A stretch of DNA of 64,000 nucleotides, taken from an uncultured Clostridium sp. Its GTDB lineage: Bacteria > Bacillota > Clostridia > Clostridiales > Clostridiaceae. The notes beneath the pieces are model-generated. The model ran no database searches. It had not been told where the DNA came from and saw only the letters and a list, made by a program, of their open reading frames with translations. Location of the stretch: positions 9,771-73,770 of the forward strand of contig NZ_CAMQZG010000012.1 of NCBI RefSeq assembly GCF_947039605.1. The letters run 5' to 3'. Shown here piece after piece: positions 1 to 43,227 of the stretch. Made by a program: the position numbers and the translations under genes. The first letter of the stretch is position 1. Each line of letters opens with the position of its first letter.

Positions 1-816
1 AATTTATCATCAGTTGTTTTAGGTAATGTTGATGTTAACTCACAGGAAGAACTTGAAGATATAGTTGAAACTCAAATTAGAGCTATGGATAATGTTATAG
101 ACCTTAATTATTATTCAGTACCATATGCAGAGGTAACTAATAAAAGATACAGAGCAATTGGTCTTGGGACTTCAGGATACCATCATATGCTAACTAACAA
201 TAAAATTGTTTGGGATAGTAAGAAGCACTTTGCTTTTGTTGATAAAGTTTATGAGGATATTAACTATTATGCTATCAAGGCTAGTATTAAAATAGCTAAG
301 GAAAAAGGTAGATATAGTTTATTTGAAGGTTCTGATTGGGATAATGGAGATTACTTTAAGCTTAGAGGATATAATACAGAAAAATGGGATAATATAAGAG
401 AAGAAATATCTCAGTTTGGTATGAGAAATGGTTACCTATTTGCAGTTGCTCCTAATGGCTCAACAGCTACAATAGCAGGAACTTCAGAGGGAATAGACCC
501 AGTAATGGCTAAGTTCTGGCTAGAAGAGAAAAAGGGAAGTATAATTCCTAAAACTGCACCAAATTTAACAGCAGATAATGGATACTTATATATGTCAGCA
601 TATGACATGGACCAACAGTGGTCAGTAGAAGCTGCAGCTATAAGACAAAGACATATAGACCAAGCACAATCATTTAACCTTTATATAACAACAGATTTAA
701 CTATGAGACAAATAGCTAATCTTTATATTCAGGCATGTAATCAAGGCGTTAAAAGTATTTACTACGTAAGAAGTAAGTCTCTTGAAATAGAAGAATGCGC
801 AATGTGCTCAGCATAA
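1..816 (+). CDS. Class I ribonucleoside-diphosphate reductase large (alpha) subunit, C-terminal fragment; the 5' end lies outside the window
   Basis: Frame 1 is open from base 1, upstream of the listed Met at 85. Motifs AVAPNGSTATIAGTSEGIDP and IYYVRS are present. The C-terminal Cys pair (CAMCSA) is typical of RNR alpha tails. The beta subunit gene follows immediately. Confidence 0.9.
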   Translation, partial: NLSSVVLGNVDVNSQEELEDIVETQIRAMDNVIDLNYYSVPYAEVTNKRYRAIGLGTSGYHHMLTNNKIVWDSKKHFAFVDKVYEDINYYAIKASIKIAKEKGRYSLFEGSDWDNGDYFKLRGYNTEKWDNIREEISQFGMRNGYLFAVAPNGSTATIAGTSEGIDPVMAKFWLEEKKGSIIPKTAPNLTADNGYLYMSAYDMDQQWSVEAAAIRQRHIDQAQSFNLYITTDLTMRQIANLYIQACNQGVKSIYYVRSKSLEIEECAMCSA

Positions 817-923
817 GTGACACCCCCAATCTTGATTTGGATAGTGGAACTTACCCAGCTAGCGAAGGGTTTCTTTTAAAGAAGAAAATAGCAATTATAA
901 AATAGATAATAAATAAATTTAGT

Positions 924-946
924 CCCCAATTTAAAAATTGGGGTTT
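924..946 (+). other. Intercistronic hairpin between the RNR alpha and beta genes (CCCCAATTT-AA-AAATTGGGG plus TTT)
   Basis: Perfect 9-bp stem read directly from the sequence. Its function (attenuator or mRNA processing/stability element) is unknown. Confidence 0.3.
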
Positions 947-975
947 AAGTTTCTATAAATATAAAGAGGTGTGTA

Positions 976-2010
976 ATGATAATTAATAAGAAAGCTCTAT
1001 TTAATGAGTTTGGAGATATAGAAGTATCTAAAAAAAGAATGGTTAATGGTAATACTACTAACCTTAATGATTTTAATAATATGAAGTATTCATGGGTTTC
1101 AGATTGGTACAGACAAGCAATGAATAACTTCTGGATACCAGAAGAGATAAACCTTGCACAAGATTTAAAGGATTATAAATTGCTTGAACATGATGAAAAA
1201 ACTGCTTATGATAAGATACTTTCTTTCTTAATTTTCCTTGATTCAATTCAAACAGCTAACCTTGGGAATATAAATAACTATGTTACAGCATCAGAGGTTA
1301 ATTTATGTCTTACAATTCAGGCATTCCAAGAAGCGGTGCACTCACAAAGTTATAGCTATATGCTTGATAGTATTTGTTCACCAGAGCAAAGAAATGAAAT
1401 ATTATATCAATGGAAAGATGATGAAGTTCTTCTTGGAAGAAATAAATTCATTGGTGATTTATATAATGGATTTATAGAAAATCCAACAATGCATACTTTT
1501 ATAAAATCTGTAATGGCTAACTATATTCTTGAGGGAGTTTACTTCTATTCAGGATTTATGTTTTTCTATAATCTTGAGAGAAATGGAAAAATGCCAGGTT
1601 CAGCTCAAGAAATCAGATATATAAACAGAGATGAAAATACTCACCTTTGGTTATTTAGAAATATGATAAGAGAACTTATAGGAGAAATGCCAGAGATATT
1701 TACTAAGGAGTTTGTAGCAGAACTTAGAGGTATGGTTCAAACTGGAGTTGAAAGTGAAATAGCCTGGGGTAAATATGTAATTGGAAATAGAATTAAAGGA
1801 ATGAATGAAACTCTTATAGAGAACTATATTAAATATATAGGGAATTTAAGACTTAAAGATTTAGGCTTTGAAATATTATATCCAGAACATACAGAAAATC
1901 CAGCTAAATGGGTAGACCAATATTCAGATCCTAATATGGTTAAAACAGATTTCTTTGAAGCAAAGTCAACAGCTTATGCAAAGGCTGGAGCTTTAGTAGA
2001 TGATCTATAA
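976..2010 (+). CDS. Class I ribonucleotide reductase small (beta) subunit, ferritin-like di-iron protein
   Basis: 344 aa with FLDSIQ and EAVHSQSYS (E-x-x-H metal ligands) plus a second RDENTH ligand block. RBS AAAGAGG lies upstream. It sits adjacent to the alpha subunit gene. Confidence 0.9.
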   Translation: MIINKKALFNEFGDIEVSKKRMVNGNTTNLNDFNNMKYSWVSDWYRQAMNNFWIPEEINLAQDLKDYKLLEHDEKTAYDKILSFLIFLDSIQTANLGNINNYVTASEVNLCLTIQAFQEAVHSQSYSYMLDSICSPEQRNEILYQWKDDEVLLGRNKFIGDLYNGFIENPTMHTFIKSVMANYILEGVYFYSGFMFFYNLERNGKMPGSAQEIRYINRDENTHLWLFRNMIRELIGEMPEIFTKEFVAELRGMVQTGVESEIAWGKYVIGNRIKGMNETLIENYIKYIGNLRLKDLGFEILYPEHTENPAKWVDQYSDPNMVKTDFFEAKSTAYAKAGALVDDL

Positions 2011-2025
2011 AATATAGAATACAAA

Positions 2026-2064
2026 AGCTATCGAAACTAGTGCATTTTGATAGCCTTTTTCTTT
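2026..2064 (+). terminator. Rho-independent terminator of the nrd operon
   Basis: Stem AGCTATCGAAA / TTTTGATAGC followed by a T-rich run. Confidence 0.6.
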
Positions 2065-2073
2065 TATAAAGAT

Positions 2074-2118
2074 AAAAAAATGTGGATAACTTTTAATAAA
2101 AGTTATCCACATTTTTTA
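2074..2118. terminator. Bidirectional terminator; copy 1 of the dispersed DnaA-box palindrome
   Basis: An A-run, then TGTGGATAACTTTT-AAT-AAAAGTTATCCACA (perfect 14-bp arms), then a T-run. It lies between convergent genes. Confidence 0.75.
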
Positions 2119-2125
2119 TATTATA

Positions 2126-2923
2126 TTAAGCTTTTGCATGTTTTCTTTTGTATAAAGCTCTCCAACAAATGAATCCATAGATAGCACTTGTTAAGTATTG
2201 AATCCAACCTACAGCACCTGACATTGTTGTTACATTTACAGTTCCGTGGTGGATAAGTTGCATTACTACTGGTTTTAAGAATAAAACAACTCCTATTCCG
2301 TTAGATAATAACCAGAATGTCCATTGCTCTAAGTATCTTTGTCCTGTTAACCAAACGGCATATATTGTTAGGATAGCTGTAAGTGAATCTAGTATAAGAT
2401 CACTATCAGGAGCTATTTTAACATGGAATAATGCTTCCATTATATTTGGTAGATAATAAGTGAATGCAGCATATGCTACCCAAAATATTACAAGCCCAAT
2501 TATTGTAAGAATCCATTCTTTTGAACCGAATTTTTTAACATCTATACTATCATCTTGATTATTTGATGCTTTCTTTTTCTTTAAAGCTTTCATCCATGAA
2601 ATAAGACCAATAACTTCTAGTGGGAAAATAAAAACAATATTTTGTATAACTTGTCCATAAAATTGACTCTTATATGCTATAAATGCATAAGTTAAAGTAT
2701 TTATTATCCAGAAGAAGTAAGCTCCTATATCTGCTCTTGCGATATAGATTGAGTTAAATACTCCAGAGACTGCTGAAATAAGACTTATAATTGAAACTAT
2801 TCCAAATACTTCTCCCCATGTTGAACTATGTGTCCAAGCTGGAAGTAAGAATACGATAATACTTATTATTGAGAAAAATACTATAAAACCTATTTGGAAT
2901 GGCGTGAATTTTTTATTTTCCAT
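2126..2923 (-). CDS. PnuC-like nicotinamide riboside transporter family membrane protein
   Basis: 265 aa and multi-TM. Trp-rich helices (QRYLEQWTFWLLSNGIGV, FFWIINTLTYAF) resemble the PnuC family. The call is from pattern recognition only. Confidence 0.5.
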   Translation of the reverse strand: MENKKFTPFQIGFIVFFSIISIIVFLLPAWTHSSTWGEVFGIVSIISLISAVSGVFNSIYIARADIGAYFFWIINTLTYAFIAYKSQFYGQVIQNIVFIFPLEVIGLISWMKALKKKKASNNQDDSIDVKKFGSKEWILTIIGLVIFWVAYAAFTYYLPNIMEALFHVKIAPDSDLILDSLTAILTIYAVWLTGQRYLEQWTFWLLSNGIGVVLFLKPVVMQLIHHGTVNVTTMSGAVGWIQYLTSAIYGFICWRALYKRKHAKA

Positions 2924-3259
2924 TTATGATACCTCGTCCTTTGTTTAAAGTTTATTAAAAATTTGTTTACGATTAATTATTACATTTTTTATTTTAACTG
3001 TTTATGAAAAGGATTTCAAATACAAAATAGTTAAAAAATAATTTCAAAAAGAATGAAAGGATTAAGTGAAAGCTTGCGACTATATTATTGAGCATTCAAA
3101 TGTAAGTGAGGGGTTATAAGTGGTGAAATTAAATTATATAGAGGATTTAGAAATGTTAAGTTATGTTATAGATTTATATTCTAACTTAGTATTCAAAAGG
3201 AAGAGAAAAAATATTAGATATAAAGACTGTTGGAAGAATGAGAGATGATAAAACTGATA

Positions 3260-3412
3260 ATGATGGAATTTTTAGAATTCTTTACAGATAAAGGTGCAAA
3301 ATTATTTGATAAGAAGAAGCTTGCAAAAGGAGAGGCGCTATATTACCTTGCTACTTGGATAATGATTGCGATAGCACTTTTTTATATAGGTAGGGCAATT
3401 ATTAATTTGTAA
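3260..3412 (+). CDS. Hypothetical 50-aa protein with one C-terminal TM helix
   Basis: ORF MMEFLEFFTDKGAKLFDKKKLAKGEALYYLATWIMIAIALFYIGRAIINL lies in a 770-bp gap and is below the ORF-track cutoff. It has no convincing RBS. Confidence 0.2.
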   Translation: MMEFLEFFTDKGAKLFDKKKLAKGEALYYLATWIMIAIALFYIGRAIINL

Positions 3413-3696
3413 AAAATATATTAAAGGTATAGGATTCTACATCTTTTATTTTTATGGTAAAAAAGTAGGGATAGATATATCAATTTGTGTAAAAATATTA
3501 ATGAGTAAAGTAATACTACTAAGATTATATAGAAAATATAACAAAAATGGTTTATACTAAAGGTAAATCAATATCAATCACATAAAAGGAGAATTTTTGT
3601 TAATAAATTATGACAAAATTTTAAAAAATTCAAAAATAATATATAAAATATTATTAAATTACAAAACATAAGATAAAACCGAAAGGGGAAGATTTA

Positions 3697-4935
3697 ATGT
3701 CACATGGTTATTTATTAGACCTTGCATTAATACTTCTAAGTACAAAATTATTTGGACTATTAACAAAAAAGTTTAAGTTACCACAGGTTGTGGGAGCACT
3801 TCTTGCAGGAGTTATTTTAGGACCATCTGTACTTGGAATATTACATGAAACTAATTTTATAGATCAATTATCATCACTTGGAGTTATAGTTTTAATGTTT
3901 GCAGCAGGTCTTGAGACGGATGTAGCAGAACTTAAAAAAACAGGTAAAGCATCTCTTGCAGCAGCTCTTTTAGGAGTTATTATTCCACTTGTAGCTGGAA
4001 TAATATTAGCAATGGTATTCCATGAAGGTTCAGGTTCTAATGTAATGCTTAAATATGTATTTATAGGAATTATATTAACAGCGACATCAGTAAGTATTAC
4101 TGTAGAAACTCTGAAAGAACTTGGAAAACTTAGTACAAGAGCTGGAAATACAATACTTGGAGCAGCACTTATAGATGATATCCTTGGAATCATAGGGCTT
4201 ACAGTGGTTACAAGTATGGCTGATTCAACAGTTAGTATAGGAATAGTTTTACTTAAAATTGTATTATTCTTTGTTTTTGCAGGAATTGTAGGATTTATAG
4301 TAAGAAAATTATTTATAAAATGGACAGCAAAGCATGGAAAAGATATGAAAAGATTTGTTATCATGTCATTTGTATTGTGTTTAGGACTATCATACATAGC
4401 AGAGGAGTTCTTTGGAGTTACAGATATAACAGGTGCATTTATTGCAGGTATGGTTATATCTAATACAGAGAGAACCCACTTTATAAACAAGAAATTTGAA
4501 ACATTATCATACATATTATTATCCCCAATATTCTTCGCAAGTATAGGTATAAAGCTAAATGTAGATTCTATGGATATGAAAACTATCATATTTACAATTG
4601 TTTTAATAGTAGTAGCTATACTAACGAAGATTATAGGTGGAGGGCTTGGAGTCAAGTTCTTTGGTTATAGCAATAGAGAGGCAATGCAAGTTGGGGCGGG
4701 AATGGTTTCAAGAGGTGAAGTTGCACTTATAGTTGCAAATAAAGGAATGGCGGTTGGGCTTATGGCACCAGAGTTTTTAGTTCCTGTAGTTATAATGGTT
4801 ATTGCAACTACAATAGCAGCACCAATATTATTAAAAATAGTATTCAAAAATAAACCAGGTCAAAATGACCCAGGAGAAGAAAGTATTCAACTTGTAAAAG
4901 ACTATGTTGAAGTAGCTAGTGAAAGAATAGAATAA
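3697..4935 (+). CDS. Cation:proton antiporter (CPA2 family, Na+/H+ or K+/H+ exchanger), paralogue 1
   Basis: 412 aa with about 12 TM helices. N-terminus LPQVVGALLAGVILGP and GLETD are typical of CPA2. RBS AAAGGGGA is present. Confidence 0.85.
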   Translation: MSHGYLLDLALILLSTKLFGLLTKKFKLPQVVGALLAGVILGPSVLGILHETNFIDQLSSLGVIVLMFAAGLETDVAELKKTGKASLAAALLGVIIPLVAGIILAMVFHEGSGSNVMLKYVFIGIILTATSVSITVETLKELGKLSTRAGNTILGAALIDDILGIIGLTVVTSMADSTVSIGIVLLKIVLFFVFAGIVGFIVRKLFIKWTAKHGKDMKRFVIMSFVLCLGLSYIAEEFFGVTDITGAFIAGMVISNTERTHFINKKFETLSYILLSPIFFASIGIKLNVDSMDMKTIIFTIVLIVVAILTKIIGGGLGVKFFGYSNREAMQVGAGMVSRGEVALIVANKGMAVGLMAPEFLVPVVIMVIATTIAAPILLKIVFKNKPGQNDPGEESIQLVKDYVEVASERIE

Positions 4936-5202
4936 AATTTTGAAAAGTTATTATAGTGCTAGAAATAGCATGAATAGTAGCTTTTCTTTTTTTATTTTTA
5001 GAGTTAGAGCACAAATAAAGGTTACTTACAAAAAAGTCGGTACTTTTAAAAATTTGTAGGTAGGATATAATAATATTTGTAAGCGACACACAAGTTGCTT
5101 TTAAGACAAGTATAAAAGACTTGTAATAATGAATAATAATATTAGCAGAGTAAAATTGACAACTAAGAATAAAATAGATAAACATAAGAGGAGGAATTTT
5201 CA

Positions 5203-37512: not shown

Positions 37513-38677
37513 AGCAATTAAAGTAAAACTATATCCTACTAAAAAACAAGAAGAGTTAATGTGGAAAAGTGCTGGTGTAGCTAGGTTTTCTTATAATTGG
37601 GGACTAAATTATTTAAATAACTATTATGAAGAAAATAAAAAATCTCTATCAATAGGAAATTTAAGAAAAGTCTTTACAGAGATTAGAAAATCAGAAGAAT
37701 ACAAGTGGTTGAAAGAAGTTTCTTCGGAGATACCACAACAAGCACTTAAAGATTTAGGAGATTCGTTTCAACGATTTTTCAAAAAAGAATCTGACTATCC
37801 TAAATTTAAAAGAAAAGGCAAATGTCAAACCTCATTCTTTCACCTAAACAATAAATTTGTTGTTGAGGATAACTATATCAGGTTAGAAAAGATAGGTTAT
37901 GTAAAAATGAAAGATGAAGATAGACTACCAGTTGGAAACTATAAAAAAGATGAAATTAAAGTCTTAAATCCTAGAATAAAACATAACGGAAAGTTTTGGT
38001 ATTTAGCACTTGCTTTTGAGTGTGAAGATAATACAAAGGAAGAACTAACAGGCGAAAGTGTAGGAGTAGATTTAGGCATTAAGAATTTAGCAATAGTTTC
38101 TAATTTTGAAAAAACTTTTAAAAACATTAACAAATCTAAAGAAATGAGAAGATTAAATAAGAAACTTAAAAGACTATAAAGACAAGTTTCAAGAAAATAT
38201 GATATGTTGAAGGATGGCAAAGTTTTTGAAAAAGGTCAAAAACTTATTAAAACTCAAAATATCATAAAACTTGAAAAAGAAATTAAACTTGTTCATAAAA
38301 AAATTGCAGATATTAGATTAAATCATATACATCAAAGCACAAATGCTATCGTGAAAACCAAGCCTAGCAGAGTTGTTGTAGAAGATTTAAATGTTAAGGG
38401 TATGATGAAAAATAAATACTTAGCTAAAGCAATTTCAGAGCAATGTTTCAATAAGTTTATAACTATTCTTAGTCATAAATGTAAGTGGAAAGGTATTGAG
38501 TTTGTAAAAGCAGATAGATTCTTTCCAAGCAGTAAAATGTGTTCTTGTTGTGGAACTATAAAAAAAGACTTGCAACTAAAAGATAGGACTTATATATGTA
38601 TAAATGATAAGTGTAATCTTATAATGGATAGAGATAAAAATGCAAGTTTTAACTTAGCAATGTATAAATTAGCTTAA
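37505..38677 (+). pseudogene. tnpB: TnpB (IS1341/OrfB-type RNA-guided nuclease) with a single in-frame TAA at 38177-38179
   Basis: ORFs 37505..38179 and 38204..38677 are in the same frame, separated only by one stop (..LKRL*RQVSRK..). RuvC D (VGVDLGIKNLA), E (VVVEDLNVKGM), zinc finger (CSCCG...CINDKC) and D (MDRDKNASFNLA) are all present. Confidence 0.85.
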
Positions 38678-38841
38678 AAAATCAAATTAAAAGATTAAGC
38701 TAATATGTAGGCAATGACGAGGTCGAATTTAAGCCTTTGGAGAATTATATCAAATAGAAGTAGCTTTAGAGTGAAACTAGATTCAATGAAAAAGGAAATA
38801 GAACTATAAAAATTATAAAGCATTTATAAGGAATTATAGAG

Positions 38842-39464
38842 TTTATACGTCAGAAAGTATTATAAAAAGTAGAGGTGGAGAGTGTCTTTTGGTTAGAGGA
38901 GATATTACAGAAGAGGATATGTGTAAAGAAGTAGTGAATCAATGTGTGGAGAGGTTTGGGACAGTTGATATTCTTATAAATAATGCAGCAGTTCAGTATC
39001 CACAATATGATATTTGTGATATTACAAAGGAGCAACTTTTAAAAACTTTTAAAACTAATATTTTTTCTGCATTTTATCTTTCAAAAGCAGTTATTCCATA
39101 TATGAAACTTGGGTCTTCTATAATTAATACAACTTCTATAGTTGCGTATAGAGGGAATGAAAAACTTATAGATTATTCATCTACAAAAGGAGCTTTGACT
39201 AGTTTTACAAGGTCACTTGCACTTAATTTAGCTGATAAAGGAATTAGAGTTAATGCAGTTGCCCCAGGACCAGTTTGGACACCTCTTATAGTTTCATCAT
39301 TTAGTGCACAGGATGTTAAAAAGTTTGCAGAGAATAGAGAGTTCTTTAGAGTTGCACAACCAGTTGAAATTGTAGAACCTTATGTCTTTTTAGCTAGTCA
39401 AGCAGGTTCATATACTACAGGGACTACTATTCATGTAGATGGAGGTAAAATTGCTAATACATAA
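38842..39464 (+). CDS. YdaD/YhdF-type SDR, 3' exon
   Basis: The frame is open back to 38802. Sequence reads ...YTSESIIKSRGGECLLVRGDITEED...ILINNAA...YSSTKGA...HVDGG, which is the contiguous continuation of the 36118 fragment. Confidence 0.75.
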
Positions 39465-39473
39465 ACATAAAAG

Positions 39474-39502
39474 ATACTAGATTTCAATTCTAGTATTTTT
39501 TG
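39474..39502 (+). terminator. Rho-independent terminator of the SDR gene
   Basis: ATACTAGA-TTTCAAT-TCTAGTAT followed by T5. Confidence 0.7.
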
Positions 39503-39844
39503 CTTTTTTAAAGAAAAATTAAATTAATGAATTTAGAGAATTTTTTTTGATAAAATATAAAAAATATAATTCATTAATTGCTATTTTATTGAAATTAAAT
39601 GGCAAAAAAAAGAAATATAGAAATCTAATTAGAAAATGAGTTTCTAATTTATAATATTAATAAGTTATATATGCTAATGTGTTATATTCACTCAATTTCA
39701 ATATTTTGATAAGAATAGTATAATTTAGTGTGACTTAGCATTTAGCAAAGTTTTTCAAGGTTATTAAATTAACTTCGATAGTAAAATTTTCACAAGTTTT
39801 TATTGGAGGCAAGCAGTTAATTAGGTTCAAAAATTTAATTAATT

Positions 39845-40423
39845 AAAGCTGTAAGTCTCCCGTGTTCGTAAAGAGCATTGAGTTGTAAGTATTTTGTACT
39901 TACACAAAATCCTTTGAATTGCTGGGAACTCTTAAAGCTAGCTAAACTAAAACATAAGGTTGAAATATATCTAGGTGTGAATGTTACGAAAGTAAAAAAA
40001 ATTAGCTGGATAGCATATGGTTAAATCCTAAGTGCTAGTCCAAAGTAGTAATATCTGTACTACTTAAATTACTTAATAGGTTAAGTAAGGAAAATAGACA
40101 ATCAGCAGGTAAGCCTCGAATAGAGGAAACTTCAACGACTATGGCGTAATGCCAGTACACTATAAGTTATTGATAGTGGAAGTGGAGGACACCTAACTAC
40201 TTTTATAGTAGCAGGTGGTAAGATAGTCTACGCTTATGTGAAAACATAAGAAGTTCATAAGAGAACTGCATAGAAGTAGCGATTCTATGTGAATGAAATG
40301 TCTATGAAAATGACCTAGGTTCATTGATAAATTTAAAACTGAATAATTAAATTTTAGAACAGAAGGCTGTTTTTATATGCAGACATTTCCTCTGTTATTT
40401 TATAGACTCAATTTATGTTTATA
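39845..40423 (+). ncRNA. ORF-less group I ribozyme paralogue (mini-IStron-like) in the mgtA 5' leader
   Basis: Identical blocks are shared with the IStron core: 20/20 nt at 40015-40034, and 17/17 nt at 40126-40142 including the P7 GACTAT strand. P7 3' strand ATAGTC lies at 40223-40228. Three helices are kept by compensatory substitutions. There is no ORF. The ends are approximate. Confidence 0.65.
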
Positions 40424-40463
40424 AAGTGACCAAACCAAAAAAAATGATTGGAGAGGATCGCAT

Positions 40464-43115
40464 ATGAAAAAAGATAAAGCTAAAAAACAGTTTGATAGAG
40501 AGGGTTTTGATAGAGTTGTAAAACATCTACAAAGAAACACTAATTTATCTAAAGAAGAACTATGTGAAAAGTTCACTACATCAGAGAATGGTTTAAAGCC
40601 AGAACAAGTTTCTAAAAATGCTAGTCAGTACGGAAAGAATAATACAAAAGAAGAGAAGAAAGTTCCAGTAGTGGTACAACTCTTTAAATCTTTTGCGAAT
40701 GCGTTTGTATTAGTCCTTTTAATTATAGGAATTATTACATATCTAACTAATGTTGTATTTGTGCCAAAAGCTCAAGAAAGTTGGTCACAGGTAATAATTA
40801 TAGGAATTCTTATATTCACAAGTGGGATTATTTCATTTGTTCAGGAATATAAGTCAGAAAAAGCAGCAGACTCACTTAAAAAACTTATTACTACTACTTG
40901 TAATATTAAAAGAAATAATGGTGAATATGAAAAAGTAGATATGCTTAATATAGTTGTAGGGGATATTATAAAACTTACAACAGGAGATATTATTCCAGCA
41001 GATTTAAGAGTTATAAATTGTAAAAACTTTTTTGTAAGTCAGTCAGCTTTAACAGGAGAATCTGAGCCAATTGAAAAGAAAGTTGAGAATAATATAGTAG
41101 GTAAAGAGGCTGGAAATTATGAAAACATTTGTCTGTTAGGTACAAATGTTGTTAGTGGTACTGCTACTGCAATAGTTATTGGAGTTGGAGAACACACATA
41201 TTTTGGAGCTATGCAAAGCTCAATGGCAGATATTGATGAGGAAACAAGCTTTGAGAAAAGTGTTAAAAAAGTTTCATCTATGCTTTTAAAGTTTATGCTT
41301 ATTATGGTACCTTTAGTTTTTATTATTGATTGGTATCAAACAAAAAGTTTCTTGAATTCATTAGTGTTTGCAGCCTCTGTAGCAGTTGGATTAACACCTA
41401 TAATGCTTCCAACTATAGTTTCAGAAAACCTTGCAAAAGGTGCAATTAAAATGTCTAAGAAGAAAACTGTTGTTAAAAAAATAAGTGCTATCCAAAACTT
41501 TGGTTCAATGGAAATTCTTTGTACTGATAAAACAGGAACACTTACAGATGATAAAATAGCAGTTGAAGCACATATTAATATAAATGGTGAAACATGTGAT
41601 AATGTCCTAAAGTACGGATTTATAAATAGTTCACTTCAAAGTGGACTTCAGAATGTTATAGATTTTGCTATTATGGACCTTGCTAAAGAAAAAAACTTTG
41701 ATAAAGAGTTACAAGGTAAAGTTAATAAAGTAGATGAAATAGCATTTGATTTTACAAGAAGAAGAATGTCAGTTGTAATAAAAGATGAGTTTACAGATAA
41801 AGCAAAAATTATTACAAAAGGTGCATTAGAGGAGATGCTTTCAGTATCTAAATATGTTGAGGTTGATGGTCAAATTCTTGAGATTAATGATAAGATTTTA
41901 TCAAAAATTAGAAAAGAGGCCAGAGCGCTTAATAATGAAGGTATGAGAGTTATTGGTGTTTCTATTAAGAATGACCAAGACCCTGAAAAAAGATTTGCAC
42001 CGGTAGATGAGAGCGACATGATTTTAGTTGGATTCATAGGATTTTTAGATCCACCAAAAGAGAGCACACAAGAGGCTTTGAAAGCTCTTGCATATTATGG
42101 GGTTGATGTAAAAATCTTAACAGGAGACAATGAACTTGTTACAAGAAAAGTTTGTGAGCAGTTAAATTTTGAAATAACTAATATTGTTCTTGGTCCAGAA
42201 ATGGAAGAAATGGATGATGATAAATTATTTAGAGTTGCTATGAAAACAAACATATTTGCAAAACTTAATCCACTTCAAAAAGCTAGACTTGTTAGAGTTT
42301 TAAGAAACGGTGATAAGATAGTTGGGTTCATGGGTGATGGAATAAATGATTCAATCGCTTTAAAAGAAGCAGATGTTGGAATTTCAGTTGATACAGCAGT
42401 TGATATTGCGAAAGATGCTGCCGATGTAATACTTTTAGAGAAGGATTTAATGGTTCTTAAAGAAGGTATTATTGAGGGAAGAAAAGTTTTTGCAAACACT
42501 ACTAAATATCTTAAAATTACAGCTAGTTCAAATTACGGAAATGCTATAAGTGTTCTTATGGCTAGTATTTTCCTACCATTTGTACCTATGCTTCCTATTG
42601 AGCTTTTAATTCAGAACTTGGTTTATGATATCACACAAGTATTTTTACCTTGGGATAATGTAGACGAGGAGCTTATTGCAAGACCAAGAAAGTGGGATGC
42701 TAAGGATATTGGTAAGATGATGGTTGTATTTGGACCTACAAATTCAATATTTGATATTTGTACTTTTGCACTTATGTGGTTTGGATTTGGATGTACTACT
42801 ATTGCTTCAGCAGCAACTTTCCAAACTGGATGGTTTATAGAAGGATTTACAACTCAGGTTCTAGTTCTTTATATGCTTAGAACAGAGAAAATTCCATTCC
42901 TTCAAAGTAATGCATCATGGCAGCTTAATATTTCAATTGTAGTTTCACTTCTTATTGGATGGTTCTTACCATACACAAGTTTTGGACATACAATCGGAAT
43001 GGTTAAACTTACACCATACTTCTTTATATTTATAGTATTTGTAATAATAGCTTACTTCTTCTTAACACAAGGAGCTAAGAAACTTTATCTTAAAAGATTT
43101 GGAACAATATTATAA
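40464..43115 (+). CDS. mgtA: Magnesium-translocating P-type ATPase
   Basis: 883 aa with the CTDKTGTLT phosphorylation site, the GDGINDS hinge, and overall MgtA/MgtB-type architecture. Confidence 0.9.
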   Translation: MKKDKAKKQFDREGFDRVVKHLQRNTNLSKEELCEKFTTSENGLKPEQVSKNASQYGKNNTKEEKKVPVVVQLFKSFANAFVLVLLIIGIITYLTNVVFVPKAQESWSQVIIIGILIFTSGIISFVQEYKSEKAADSLKKLITTTCNIKRNNGEYEKVDMLNIVVGDIIKLTTGDIIPADLRVINCKNFFVSQSALTGESEPIEKKVENNIVGKEAGNYENICLLGTNVVSGTATAIVIGVGEHTYFGAMQSSMADIDEETSFEKSVKKVSSMLLKFMLIMVPLVFIIDWYQTKSFLNSLVFAASVAVGLTPIMLPTIVSENLAKGAIKMSKKKTVVKKISAIQNFGSMEILCTDKTGTLTDDKIAVEAHININGETCDNVLKYGFINSSLQSGLQNVIDFAIMDLAKEKNFDKELQGKVNKVDEIAFDFTRRRMSVVIKDEFTDKAKIITKGALEEMLSVSKYVEVDGQILEINDKILSKIRKEARALNNEGMRVIGVSIKNDQDPEKRFAPVDESDMILVGFIGFLDPPKESTQEALKALAYYGVDVKILTGDNELVTRKVCEQLNFEITNIVLGPEMEEMDDDKLFRVAMKTNIFAKLNPLQKARLVRVLRNGDKIVGFMGDGINDSIALKEADVGISVDTAVDIAKDAADVILLEKDLMVLKEGIIEGRKVFANTTKYLKITASSNYGNAISVLMASIFLPFVPMLPIELLIQNLVYDITQVFLPWDNVDEELIARPRKWDAKDIGKMMVVFGPTNSIFDICTFALMWFGFGCTTIASAATFQTGWFIEGFTTQVLVLYMLRTEKIPFLQSNASWQLNISIVVSLLIGWFLPYTSFGHTIGMVKLTPYFFIFIVFVIIAYFFLTQGAKKLYLKRFGTIL

Positions 43116-43137: not shown

Positions 43138-43227
43138 ATGAGTGCATTAACAATATTAGGATTTATAGTTGCAGCAATAGCGTATATTATTTTACCAGCT
43201 GTGATTTTAATAAAAAAAGATTTATAA
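43138..43227 (+). CDS. Hypothetical 29-aa hydrophobic peptide downstream of mgtA
   Basis: MSALTILGFIVAAIAYIILPAVILIKKDL, a single TM helix. RBS GAGGTGA lies 6 nt upstream. The ORF sits 22 nt after the mgtA stop and upstream of the shared terminator. Confidence 0.4.
   Translation: MSALTILGFIVAAIAYIILPAVILIKKDL

Follow-up and report, generated by a model that had tools for sequence, protein, structure and literature searches.

A group I ribozyme of the IStron family in the mgtA leader of Sarcina-clade clostridia: identity, conservation and a predicted link to Shine-Dalgarno accessibility

In this study, we analysed a stretch of 64,000 nucleotides (nt) from an uncultured Clostridium sp. (NCBI RefSeq assembly GCF_947039605.1, contig NZ_CAMQZG010000012.1, positions 9,771 to 73,770 of the forward strand), hereafter the window, and in particular the 5' leader of mgtA, the gene of a magnesium-translocating P-type ATPase. 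Upstream of mgtA lies a gene of the short-chain dehydrogenase/reductase (SDR) family that is interrupted by a full IStron, and between the SDR stop codon and mgtA (39465-40463) there is no open reading frame (ORF) longer than 60 amino acids (aa), as the first-pass annotation of this DNA had stated. The leader holds a group I ribozyme, placed on the mgtA strand between a conserved −10 box and the Shine-Dalgarno sequence of the gene, and the same arrangement is kept in two further Sarcina genomes, L001 and L002 (L-numbers denote loci recovered by homology, and the ranks of relatives and the word nearest hold among the matches listed). By homology, the 573-nt element goes back to a group B (IS607-type) IStron whose tnpA and tnpB were lost, leaving it without ORFs. 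ORF-less IStrons were already known; what is new here is one that is fixed and selectively maintained in the leader of a transporter gene. The features of the locus are collected in Table 1.

Table 1. Features of the mgtA leader, its ribozyme and the compared IStrons (window coordinates; locus coordinates in the last four rows; ^ marks a junction here and in the text).
Feature	Position	Strand	Basis or remark
Full IStron interrupting the SDR gene (comparator)	36380..38853	+	Group I 5' part, IS607 tnpA, split tnpB, RAGATH-18 right end; Pfam and NCBIfam matches
Putative −10 box TATAAT, mgtA leader promoter	39719..39724	+	Conservation; predicted start near 39731
Leader 5' exon, about 79 nt, ending ...UUAUUGGAGG	39731..39809	+	Boundary by IStron homology; near-neutral evolution rate
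GGAGG: insertion target, P1 5' strand and proposed anti-anti-Shine-Dalgarno after splicing	39805..39809	+	Pairs with GUCUCC 39855-39860
P1	39805-10 with 39855-60	+	Exon GGAGG and first intron nucleotide with guide sequence
ORF-less group I intron (IStron derivative)	39810..40382	+	Intron_gpI score, family covariation, orthologous copies, no ORF >60 aa
Internal guide sequence GUCUCC, P1 3' strand	39855..39860	+	Homologous to GCCUCC of nearest IStrons
5' strands of P3 (39910-15) and P4 (39920-25), J3/4 AAU, 'P' element	39910..39925	+	Partners 40184-89 and 40102-07
Two extra hairpins, P5 extension	40044..40087	+	Only in mgtA-leader copies: window, L001, L002
P4 3' strand (40102-07), P6 (40114-17 with 40123-26), J6/7, P7 5' strand (40137-42), 'Q' and 'R' elements	40102..40142	+	TTCAACGACTA nearly invariant family-wide; P6 covaries
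P7.1 (40143-45 with 40151-53) and P7.2 (40158-63 with 40173-78)	40143..40178	+	Helix pair typical of subgroup IA
P3 3' strand (40184-89), P8 (40190-94 with 40213-17), P7 3' strand (40223-28, 'S' element)	40184..40228	+	
P9 (GAAA loop), P9.1, P9.2 hairpin CAUAGA-AGUAGCGA-UCUAUG	40233..40289	+	
Tail from IStron right end, finishing ...UUUUUAUAUGCAG^; putative terminal G40382	40290..40382	+	Colinear with relatives' right ends
UCCUCU, proposed anti-Shine-Dalgarno in 3' exon	40388..40393	+	Complementary to AGAGGA 40452-57 and to GGAGG^A across junction
14-base-pair A/U-rich hairpin in 3' exon	40394..40430	+	Predicted in window, L001, L002
mgtA Shine-Dalgarno GGAGAGG (40450-56) and start codon (40464-66)	40450..40466	+	Read from sequence
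mgtA, magnesium-translocating P-type ATPase, 883 aa	40464..43115	+	TIGR01524 equivalog, 1042 bits (cut-off 610.75)
IStron L033, host gene for a 122-aa protein	1803-3697		
IStron L043, host gene for acetolactate synthase	1777-3788		
IStron L046, host gene for a 56-aa clostridial ferredoxin		reverse	927-nt ORF-less element
IStron L010, host gene for an 87-aa protein	259-2328		

The Rfam family Intron_gpI (RF00028) matched positions 39856-40250 over its full model (1-253) with 50.9 bits (gathering score 50, E = 5.2e-12). The ribozyme that the first-pass annotation had placed at 39845 to 40330 or 40463 is thus genuine, while its extent had to be redrawn to that given in Table 1. The IStron of the SDR gene scored 38.9 bits for the same family (region 36435-36760). 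It must be noted that the match emerged only when about 0.6 kb (611 nt) was searched, and that Rfam scans of the whole window and of 5.5 kb missed both copies, which is an artefact of the speed filters; therefore, negative whole-window scans for Intron_gpI are not to be trusted.

The fold of the element was compared with that of its family. The helices were assigned by hand, and P2 to P9 including the P3/P7 pseudoknot (78 leader-derived pairs) were mapped onto 79 family members. Pairing was found in 91.6% of the pairing cells, in comparison with 70.2% in shuffles and 34-41% in slid controls; a compensatory (double) change was present in 61 of the 78 pairs and the covariation score was 0.57, against 0.19 in shuffles. 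The nested helices were independently recovered by RNAalifold. P7, which forms the pseudoknot with P3, was invariant across all 79 sequences, while P3 covaried strongly, with double changes at 5 of its 6 pairs. P7.1, P7.2 and P9 also covary in the family, the first two being invariant within the mgtA clade and P9, together with P9.2, showing compensatory changes among the window, L001 and L002. Likewise, the stems of the extra P5 hairpins are held by compensatory change (AGUAGUA/UACUACU versus AGUAACA/UGUUGCU, for example). The three helices for which compensatory changes had been proposed at first sight were real and correspond to P6, P7.1 and the P9.2 hairpin with its AGUAGCG loop. As for P1, a first guess by analogy with CsISt1 paired CAG^U at 39816/17 with GCUG at 39848-51, and it was replaced when nearer relatives showed G(U/C)CUCC-GGAGG instead; the CAGU/GCUG pairing is now reread as part of the P1 extension. 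In L001 the guide sequence is GCCUCC, by which the G.U pair of the window becomes G-C. The P9.2 loop GCGAUUCU was also considered as a second anti-Shine-Dalgarno sequence and discarded, being by eye not kept in L002 and L005.

The boundaries of the element were set by homology to the nearest IStrons inserted after ...GAGG^. The nearest non-orthologous relatives were L039, L116, L073, L051, L046, L033 and L088, with 72-76% identity by blastn and 77-81% over the aligned core columns, and all of them encode TnpB except L046, an ORF-less copy of 927 nt. Most are inserted after ...GAGG^, begin with UAACUAACAGUUA and end in ...UUUUAUGCAACGG^, and their guide sequence GCCUCC, homologous to that of the leader, pairs with exon GGAGG. 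The 5' junction of the leader element, ...UUGGAGG^CAAGCAGUUA, corresponds to ...GAGG^UAACUAACAGUUA of L039, L033, L116 and others. At the opposite end, the tail runs colinear with the final ~190 nt of the nearest IStrons (z = 4.2, 4.3 and 3.2). Its putative terminal G40382, kept in four orthologues, falls in the alignment on the G that closes related right ends. From this end to the mgtA Shine-Dalgarno sequence there are 67 nt, which corrects the ~40 nt first proposed; the location on the strand of mgtA was right. A 3' splice site after G40362 (gaaCAG^aagg) was rejected, as CAG at 40360-62 reads CAC in L002 and L005 and it is with ...UAUGCAG at 40382 that the right-end termini of the relatives line up. 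The tail also holds a promoter-like sequence (TTGATA-18-TAAATT), which was rejected as an internal promoter, its spacing being disrupted by a 9-nt indel in L001 and L002.

Neither TnpA nor TnpB of the window IStron gave a tblastn match in the leader element. With no tnpA or tnpB between the core and the 3' end, the element is a derivative and not an IStron in the strict sense. The omega-RNA scaffold RAGATH-18 had no match in it at E <= 10; only a colinear remnant was seen (z about 4), which ends in GCAG and not in CGG. No near-identical extra copy of the leader element was met among the matches listed, where the best non-orthologous relative is at the 72-76% given above, and a 24-mer of the tail had 0 matches in a metagenome scan.

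The first-pass annotation had regarded the element as a paralogue of the IStron in the SDR gene, a kinship that did not hold: the two cores are 54% identical and the window IStron ranks only 72nd of 78 relatives. The identical blocks on which the proposal was based, a 20-mer (ATATGGTTAAATCCTAAGTG, at 36561 and 40015) and a 17-mer (GAAACTTCAACGACTAT, at 36634 and 40126), are indeed there and far above chance, but at least 119 loci in many Bacillota share them without change, and they therefore say nothing specific about the two copies of the window. A 16-mer, GGTTAAATCCTAAGTG, matches at least 119 loci in species-representative genomes, mostly of Clostridia and other Bacillota. The supposed resemblance between the tail sequence CTAGGTTCATTGA and the IStron right end CTAGATTCAATGA was not above chance (score 36, null 30 ± 5). 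With respect to the window IStron itself, its boundaries were obtained from the restored SDR frame (DAYKT^ESIIKSRG, against PDB 3i3o) and its ends, AG^...CAG, match the CsISt1 type (Tourasse et al., PMC4227781). Its tnpA is intact (36895-37512), its tnpB is split into two ORFs (37505-38179 and 38204-38677) and RAGATH-18 was found at its right end with 68 bits. The contig of locus L142, from the same species as the window, breaks at 38765, inside this right end, which suggests a repeated element.

By its MgtA homologues, the host of the window belongs with metagenome-assembled genomes of Sarcina. At least three further Sarcina genomes have the leader element at the orthologous site, namely L001 (576 nt), L002 (574 nt) and L005, whose contig starts inside the element and covers only its last ~95 nt; the MgtA proteins of these genomes are 91, 89 and 88% identical to that of the window, respectively. 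Identity to the window in L001 and L002, respectively, was 76 and 70.5% at the four-fold degenerate sites of mgtA, 67.5 and 72% in the promoter plus 5' exon, 92.8 and 86.9% in the ribozyme core, 100 and 96.5% in the tail (likewise 96.5% in L005), and 91 and 85% in the 3' exon leader. Helix substitutions within the clade fall into three kinds, 10 that are compensatory, 19 that are one-sided but compatible and 10 that break a pair, and most of the last kind concern peripheral hairpins that are misaligned. The core helices do not vary within the clade, and the substitutions seen in P9, P9.2, P5b and the two extra P5 hairpins are compensatory or compatible with wobble pairing. The earlier suggestion that the fold is under selection is borne out by these data (87-100% identity in the element against 70-76% at four-fold sites, with helix substitutions that preserve pairing), and the pattern indicates that purifying selection acts on the RNA fold of the mgtA-leader element. 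The best explanation of its distribution is an insertion older than the split of several Sarcina species, followed by vertical inheritance as a single-copy element. The leaders of the more distant orthologues L006, L007 and L127-L129 showed no similarity to the element; tail remnants seen by eye in L006 were not significant in a shuffle test (z = 0.8).

Around the element, the −10 region AGTATAAT is kept in the window, L001 and L002 within a stretch that is otherwise only 67-72% identical; a simple promoter scan made no call at this box. The leader and the −10 box are kept in L001 and L002 despite different upstream neighbours. In these genomes the IStron-bearing SDR gene of the window is absent, and an ORF of 68 aa rich in charged residues (3723-3929 in L001, 3883-4089 in L002) lies between the first SDR gene and the mgtA leader. 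Immediately 3' of mgtA, a hydrophobic ORF of 29-30 aa (MSALTILGFIVAAIAYIILPAVILIKKDL, 43138-43227 in the window) is kept in five of the Sarcina-clade loci inspected (L142, L006, L127, L128 and L129); by analogy with MgtS and MgtR of enterobacteria, its product could be a small membrane-protein partner of MgtA. Elsewhere in the window there is an S-adenosylmethionine (SAM-I) riboswitch (RF00162, 16369-16469, + strand, 80.4 bits), which is unrelated to the leader element.

The insertion target deserves attention. GGAGG is invariant in the window, L001 and L002, the three sequences that cover this site, and the guide sequence of the subfamily, (G)CCUCC, is identical to the anti-Shine-Dalgarno core of 16S rRNA. 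In four of 12 relatives (L033, L043, L046 and L010), the insertion falls precisely between a Shine-Dalgarno sequence of GGAGG type and the start codon, located 5-10 nt downstream; the translation of these host genes should depend on splicing. No mention of IStron insertion between a Shine-Dalgarno sequence and a start codon was found in the IStron literature consulted. Since the subfamily prefers a GGAGG target, insertion in 5' leaders follows, and it is by itself no sign of co-option. The group I ribozyme identity of the leader element, its fold, its location, its conservation and this target-site logic are counted here as demonstrated. Another Sarcina genome (L074, ~4366-5099) carries a second ORF-less group I ribozyme of the family, which starts at GGAGG^UGAUUAAUACCUCC and ends in ...AUAACGG^. 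It lies in a non-coding stretch, after a gene for a small acid-soluble spore protein and before its terminator-like hairpin, and a gene for a ZnuA-like metal-binding lipoprotein is found ~300 nt farther along.

Self-splicing activity is predicted for the leader ribozyme, with splice sites placed by homology, and the proposed sequence of events is as follows. An ancestor IStron would have inserted immediately after GGAGG in the mgtA leader. Transcription would start near 39731, the ribozyme would fold with P1 formed by exon GGAGG(C) and GUCUCC, and guanosine-initiated splicing would join G39809 to A40383, giving the predicted ligated junction GGAGG^ACAUUUCC, that is, TTTTATTGGAGG^ACATTTCCTCTG. 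In the precursor, exon GGAGG would be held in P1, 573 nt away, and UCCUCU as well as the last ~11 nt of the intron would be free to pair with the Shine-Dalgarno/AUG region of mgtA. Ligation would then form a local GGAGGA-CAUU-UCCUCU hairpin, by which the anti-Shine-Dalgarno would be captured and the ribosome-binding site left open. We infer in this way the exact splice sites, the splicing itself and the masking and unmasking of the Shine-Dalgarno sequence.

This scheme is consistent with several observations. In unspliced RNA, the Shine-Dalgarno sequence is predicted to pair mainly with UCCUCU, the partner region being 3'-exon +3 to +10, and both sequences are invariant in four orthologues. 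By partition-function folding, the mean unpaired probability of the Shine-Dalgarno sequence was 0.02, 0.02 and 0.21 in the unspliced RNAs of the window, L001 and L002, respectively, and 0.41, 0.52 and 0.38 in the spliced ones. The 6-base-pair junction hairpin GGAGGA-CAUU-UCCUCU is present in the minimum-energy fold of the three spliced sequences (GGAGG^ACAUUUCCUCU), and the stretch around the mgtA start codon, GCAUAUGAAAAA, offers a pairing partner for the final ~11 nt of the intron (UUUUUAUAUGC). The A/U-rich hairpin of the 3' exon is maintained through compensatory changes: L001 changes U.G to C-G and U-A to U.G, and L002 and L005 have a 40-nt insertion, itself a hairpin, at the tip. Between this hairpin and the Shine-Dalgarno sequence there is an unstructured CCAAACCAAAAAAAA tract. 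In addition, a small ORF (40377-40424, MQTFPLLFYRLNLCL) starts 6 nt inside the 3' end of the intron and spans the putative 3' splice site and UCCUCU. An ORF is also found there in L001 and L002; a conserved leader peptide was discarded, given that the frame differs in L002 and the peptide is not kept, and it could be the translation of the ORF, and not its peptide, that matters.

On the basis of this folding model, splicing is probably a precondition for efficient translation of mgtA, and such a need would explain the purifying selection on the ribozyme. The two possibilities raised in the first-pass annotation, a neutral, internally deleted mini-IStron or a co-opted leader, are supported in part: the element has the left end with P1, the core, the right-end tail and the GGAGG target of an ORF-less IStron derivative, and remodelling of the leader is predicted, but sensing of Mg2+ or guanosine triphosphate (GTP) is not sustained. 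Taken jointly, an ORF-less IStron derivative, fixed in the mgtA leader, whose splicing is needed for expression is the reading towards which the balance of probability inclines.

Several points weigh against this reading. At the 5' splice site, the first intron nucleotide C39810 pairs with G39855 in the window, L001 and L002, and the relatives have U at that position, so that a C-G pair stands where a U.G wobble would be expected. The exon-end G39809 pairs with U39856 (C in L001); group B IStrons are atypical here already, their exon ending in G (PMC4227781). No convincing P10 or P9.0 pairing was seen by eye, and the 3' end of the element is GCAG versus AACGG in the relatives, for which reasons we only infer the 3' splice site. 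An intron-less or empty-site allele that would fix the boundaries was not found, and the 18-mer of the spliced junction gave 11 unrelated chance matches in the metagenome scan. Near position 4640 of L002, aligned to 40130-40137 of the window, one nucleotide is deleted and a C is replaced by U (UUC-AUGACUAU). The J6/7-P7 segment affected is otherwise invariant in 78 of the 79 family members, and the change may reflect either a fault in the assembly or a ribozyme that is weakened in this lineage. The predicted unmasking is also weak in L002 (0.21 to 0.38), and in all copies it derives only from thermodynamic folding of long RNAs. In L003 (4537-5000; MgtA 75% identical), the leader is colinear with the tail and 3' exon of the window (z = 5.4) and has neither the ribozyme core nor UCCUCU. 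This leader resembles what a deletion would have left of that old insertion. Evidently, mgtA can work without the ribozyme, and the latter is dispensable in at least one lineage. Finally, the ribozyme-bearing leaders all descend from one insertion, so that the joint presence of ribozyme and anti-Shine-Dalgarno counts only once in evolutionary terms.

Among the alternatives, the element could be a passenger that is spliced constitutively and is not linked specifically to the ribosome-binding site, kept because non-splicing leaves a harmful structured RNA of 573 nt and precise deletion of the DNA is rare; the unspliced leader would then be generically harmful to stability, processivity or translation. 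Its location needs no host function, given that the subfamily targets GGAGG and repeatedly lands in 5' untranslated regions (UTRs), and the further ORF-less copy in the non-coding region of a different Sarcina genome (L074) fits with this, as do the joint conservation of ribozyme and mgtA and the existence of vertically inherited ORF-less IStrons such as BcISt1 of emetic B. cereus (PMC4227781). We nevertheless consider it rather unlikely: the tail (96-100%) and the 3' exon (85-91%) are at least as conserved as the core, which suggests constraints beyond catalysis, and it would have to be by coincidence that UCCUCU is exactly complementary to the exon end and to the Shine-Dalgarno sequence alike in four orthologues.

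Group I ribozymes require Mg2+ and a guanosine cofactor, and for this reason a co-opted sensor may be thought of, in which splicing efficiency would follow free Mg2+ or guanosine nucleotides as a regulatory element of mgtA in a clade without M-box. The Rfam check suggested in the first-pass annotation, which gave Intron_gpI as above, gave no M-box (RF00380) in the leader at E <= 10, as had been anticipated by eye, and no riboswitch family or aptamer was detected in 39790-40400 at E <= 10. It was reasonable to expect an M-box there, and the mgtA orthologue of C. botulinum (L130, 52% identical), which served as positive control, has one at 672-833 (107.9 bits). However, none of the Sarcina-clade mgtA leaders examined has an M-box, those of ribozyme-less species included, and thus the ribozyme is no stand-in for it. 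The strong conservation of the whole leader, the switch in Shine-Dalgarno accessibility predicted upon splicing and the existence of one natural regulatory group I ribozyme in a 5' UTR (PMC9481103) speak in favour of a sensor. On the other hand, no aptamer stands beside the ribozyme; its core is ordinary for the family, without any clade-specific change at the catalytic centre and differing only in the peripheral P5 hairpins; and the core was lost in L003. Moreover, with splicing as an ON switch, Mg2+-stimulated splicing would raise the importer at high Mg2+, the wrong direction for homeostasis. Sensing of Mg2+ or GTP by the leader ribozyme is consequently unsupported, and we judge the co-opted sensor improbable. 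No better rated is a broader form of domestication, in which the ribozyme would be an expression platform of mgtA whose riboswitch-less splicing rate tracks guanosine-nucleotide pools, free Mg2+, co-transcriptional folding or translation of the small ORF.

Very improbable, lastly, is that the RNA is a relic without catalytic activity or a structured leader that does not splice (kept to bind a protein or to stabilise the 5' end, or because a single cleavage or 3'-splice-site hydrolysis makes the mature mgtA 5' end): the C in place of U beside the 5' splice site in all copies, the lack of evident P10 and P9.0, the altered J6/7 of L002 and the diverged right-end terminus would agree with it, but the catalytic-core helices and the G-binding helix P7 are invariant or compensated, which a mere structural spacer would not need, and RNA with the 3' exon only is predicted to leave the Shine-Dalgarno sequence partly masked (0.33, 0.17 and 0.02).

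The leader element can be compared with several known systems. The ORF-less BcISt1 IStrons of emetic Bacillus cereus (Tourasse et al., 2014; PMC4227781) are likewise group B (IS607-type) IStrons of about 0.5 kb without both ORFs, in which the ribozyme and a short 3' stem region are kept, and they also occupy orthologous loci and are transmitted vertically. The BcISt1 copies, however, interrupt coding genes and occur only in closely related strains, whereas the element described here follows a Shine-Dalgarno-like GGAGG in a 5' leader, is conserved among species that differ by 9-12% in MgtA and has no full-length parent above ~76% identity among the matches listed. The full IS607-family IStrons (CboIStron, CseIStron and CsISt1; Zedaveinyte et al., bioRxiv 10.1101/2023.11.20.567912) share with it the ribozyme family, the layout of left end, P1 and right end, the insertion after a motif ending in GG and splice sites expected at the transposon ends. 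In contrast to them, the leader element lacks tnpA, tnpB and a detectable RAGATH-18/omega-RNA scaffold; its target is GGAGG and not TGGG, its first nucleotide C and not U, and its 3' end GCAG and not UCGG. The same source mentions freestanding group I introns in C. difficile 630, which are also ribozymes of the IStron family without insertion-sequence genes in a clostridial chromosome; in the part considered they are only listed, with no conserved 5'-UTR placement or link to a transporter gene described.

A further parallel is the only known natural regulatory group I ribozyme, which forms a tandem with an aptamer of class II for cyclic diguanylate (c-di-GMP-II) in Clostridioides difficile (Lee et al., 2010; reviewed in PMC9481103 and PMC3984707). 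In both cases a group I ribozyme is located in the 5' UTR of a protein-coding gene and the 5' exon has a Shine-Dalgarno-like sequence. Splicing alters the context of ribosome binding and gates translation in C. difficile, and by the folding prediction it would do so in the leader element. The mgtA leader differs in having no adjacent ligand aptamer; its 5' exon is poorly conserved. Furthermore, splicing in C. difficile puts the ribosome-binding site beside the start codon, whereas in the leader element both the Shine-Dalgarno sequence and the AUG belong to the 3' exon, and the predicted effect of splicing is to remove the anti-Shine-Dalgarno pairing. The M-box (ykoK, RF00380) occupies an equivalent position upstream of mgtA in Clostridium (L130) and is an unrelated RNA with another fold and another mechanism, namely Mg2+-induced compaction and termination.

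No link between mgtA and a group I intron was found in the literature searched. The c-di-GMP-II tandem is confined to C. difficile, and the rarity of this ribozyme-based control is stressed in reviews (PMC9481103). The leader element would add a second 5'-UTR group I ribozyme, under purifying selection in several species and located before a major ion transporter, and it supplies a testable pairing scheme of three parts: GGAGG, UCCUCU and the Shine-Dalgarno sequence. Should its splicing depend on conditions, it would represent a new class of aptamer-free ribozyme regulators; otherwise, it would be a clean case of a host that depends on an intron fixed in a non-coding leader. If the ribozyme were in fact domesticated as an expression platform, only one natural regulatory group I ribozyme would precede it, and none that does without a separate aptamer. 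More generally, GGAGG targeting may be a route by which selfish introns become conditions of host translation, and a wider corollary, if true, would be that a whole IStron subfamily with an anti-Shine-Dalgarno-like guide inserts at ribosome-binding sites and couples the translation of its hosts to splicing.

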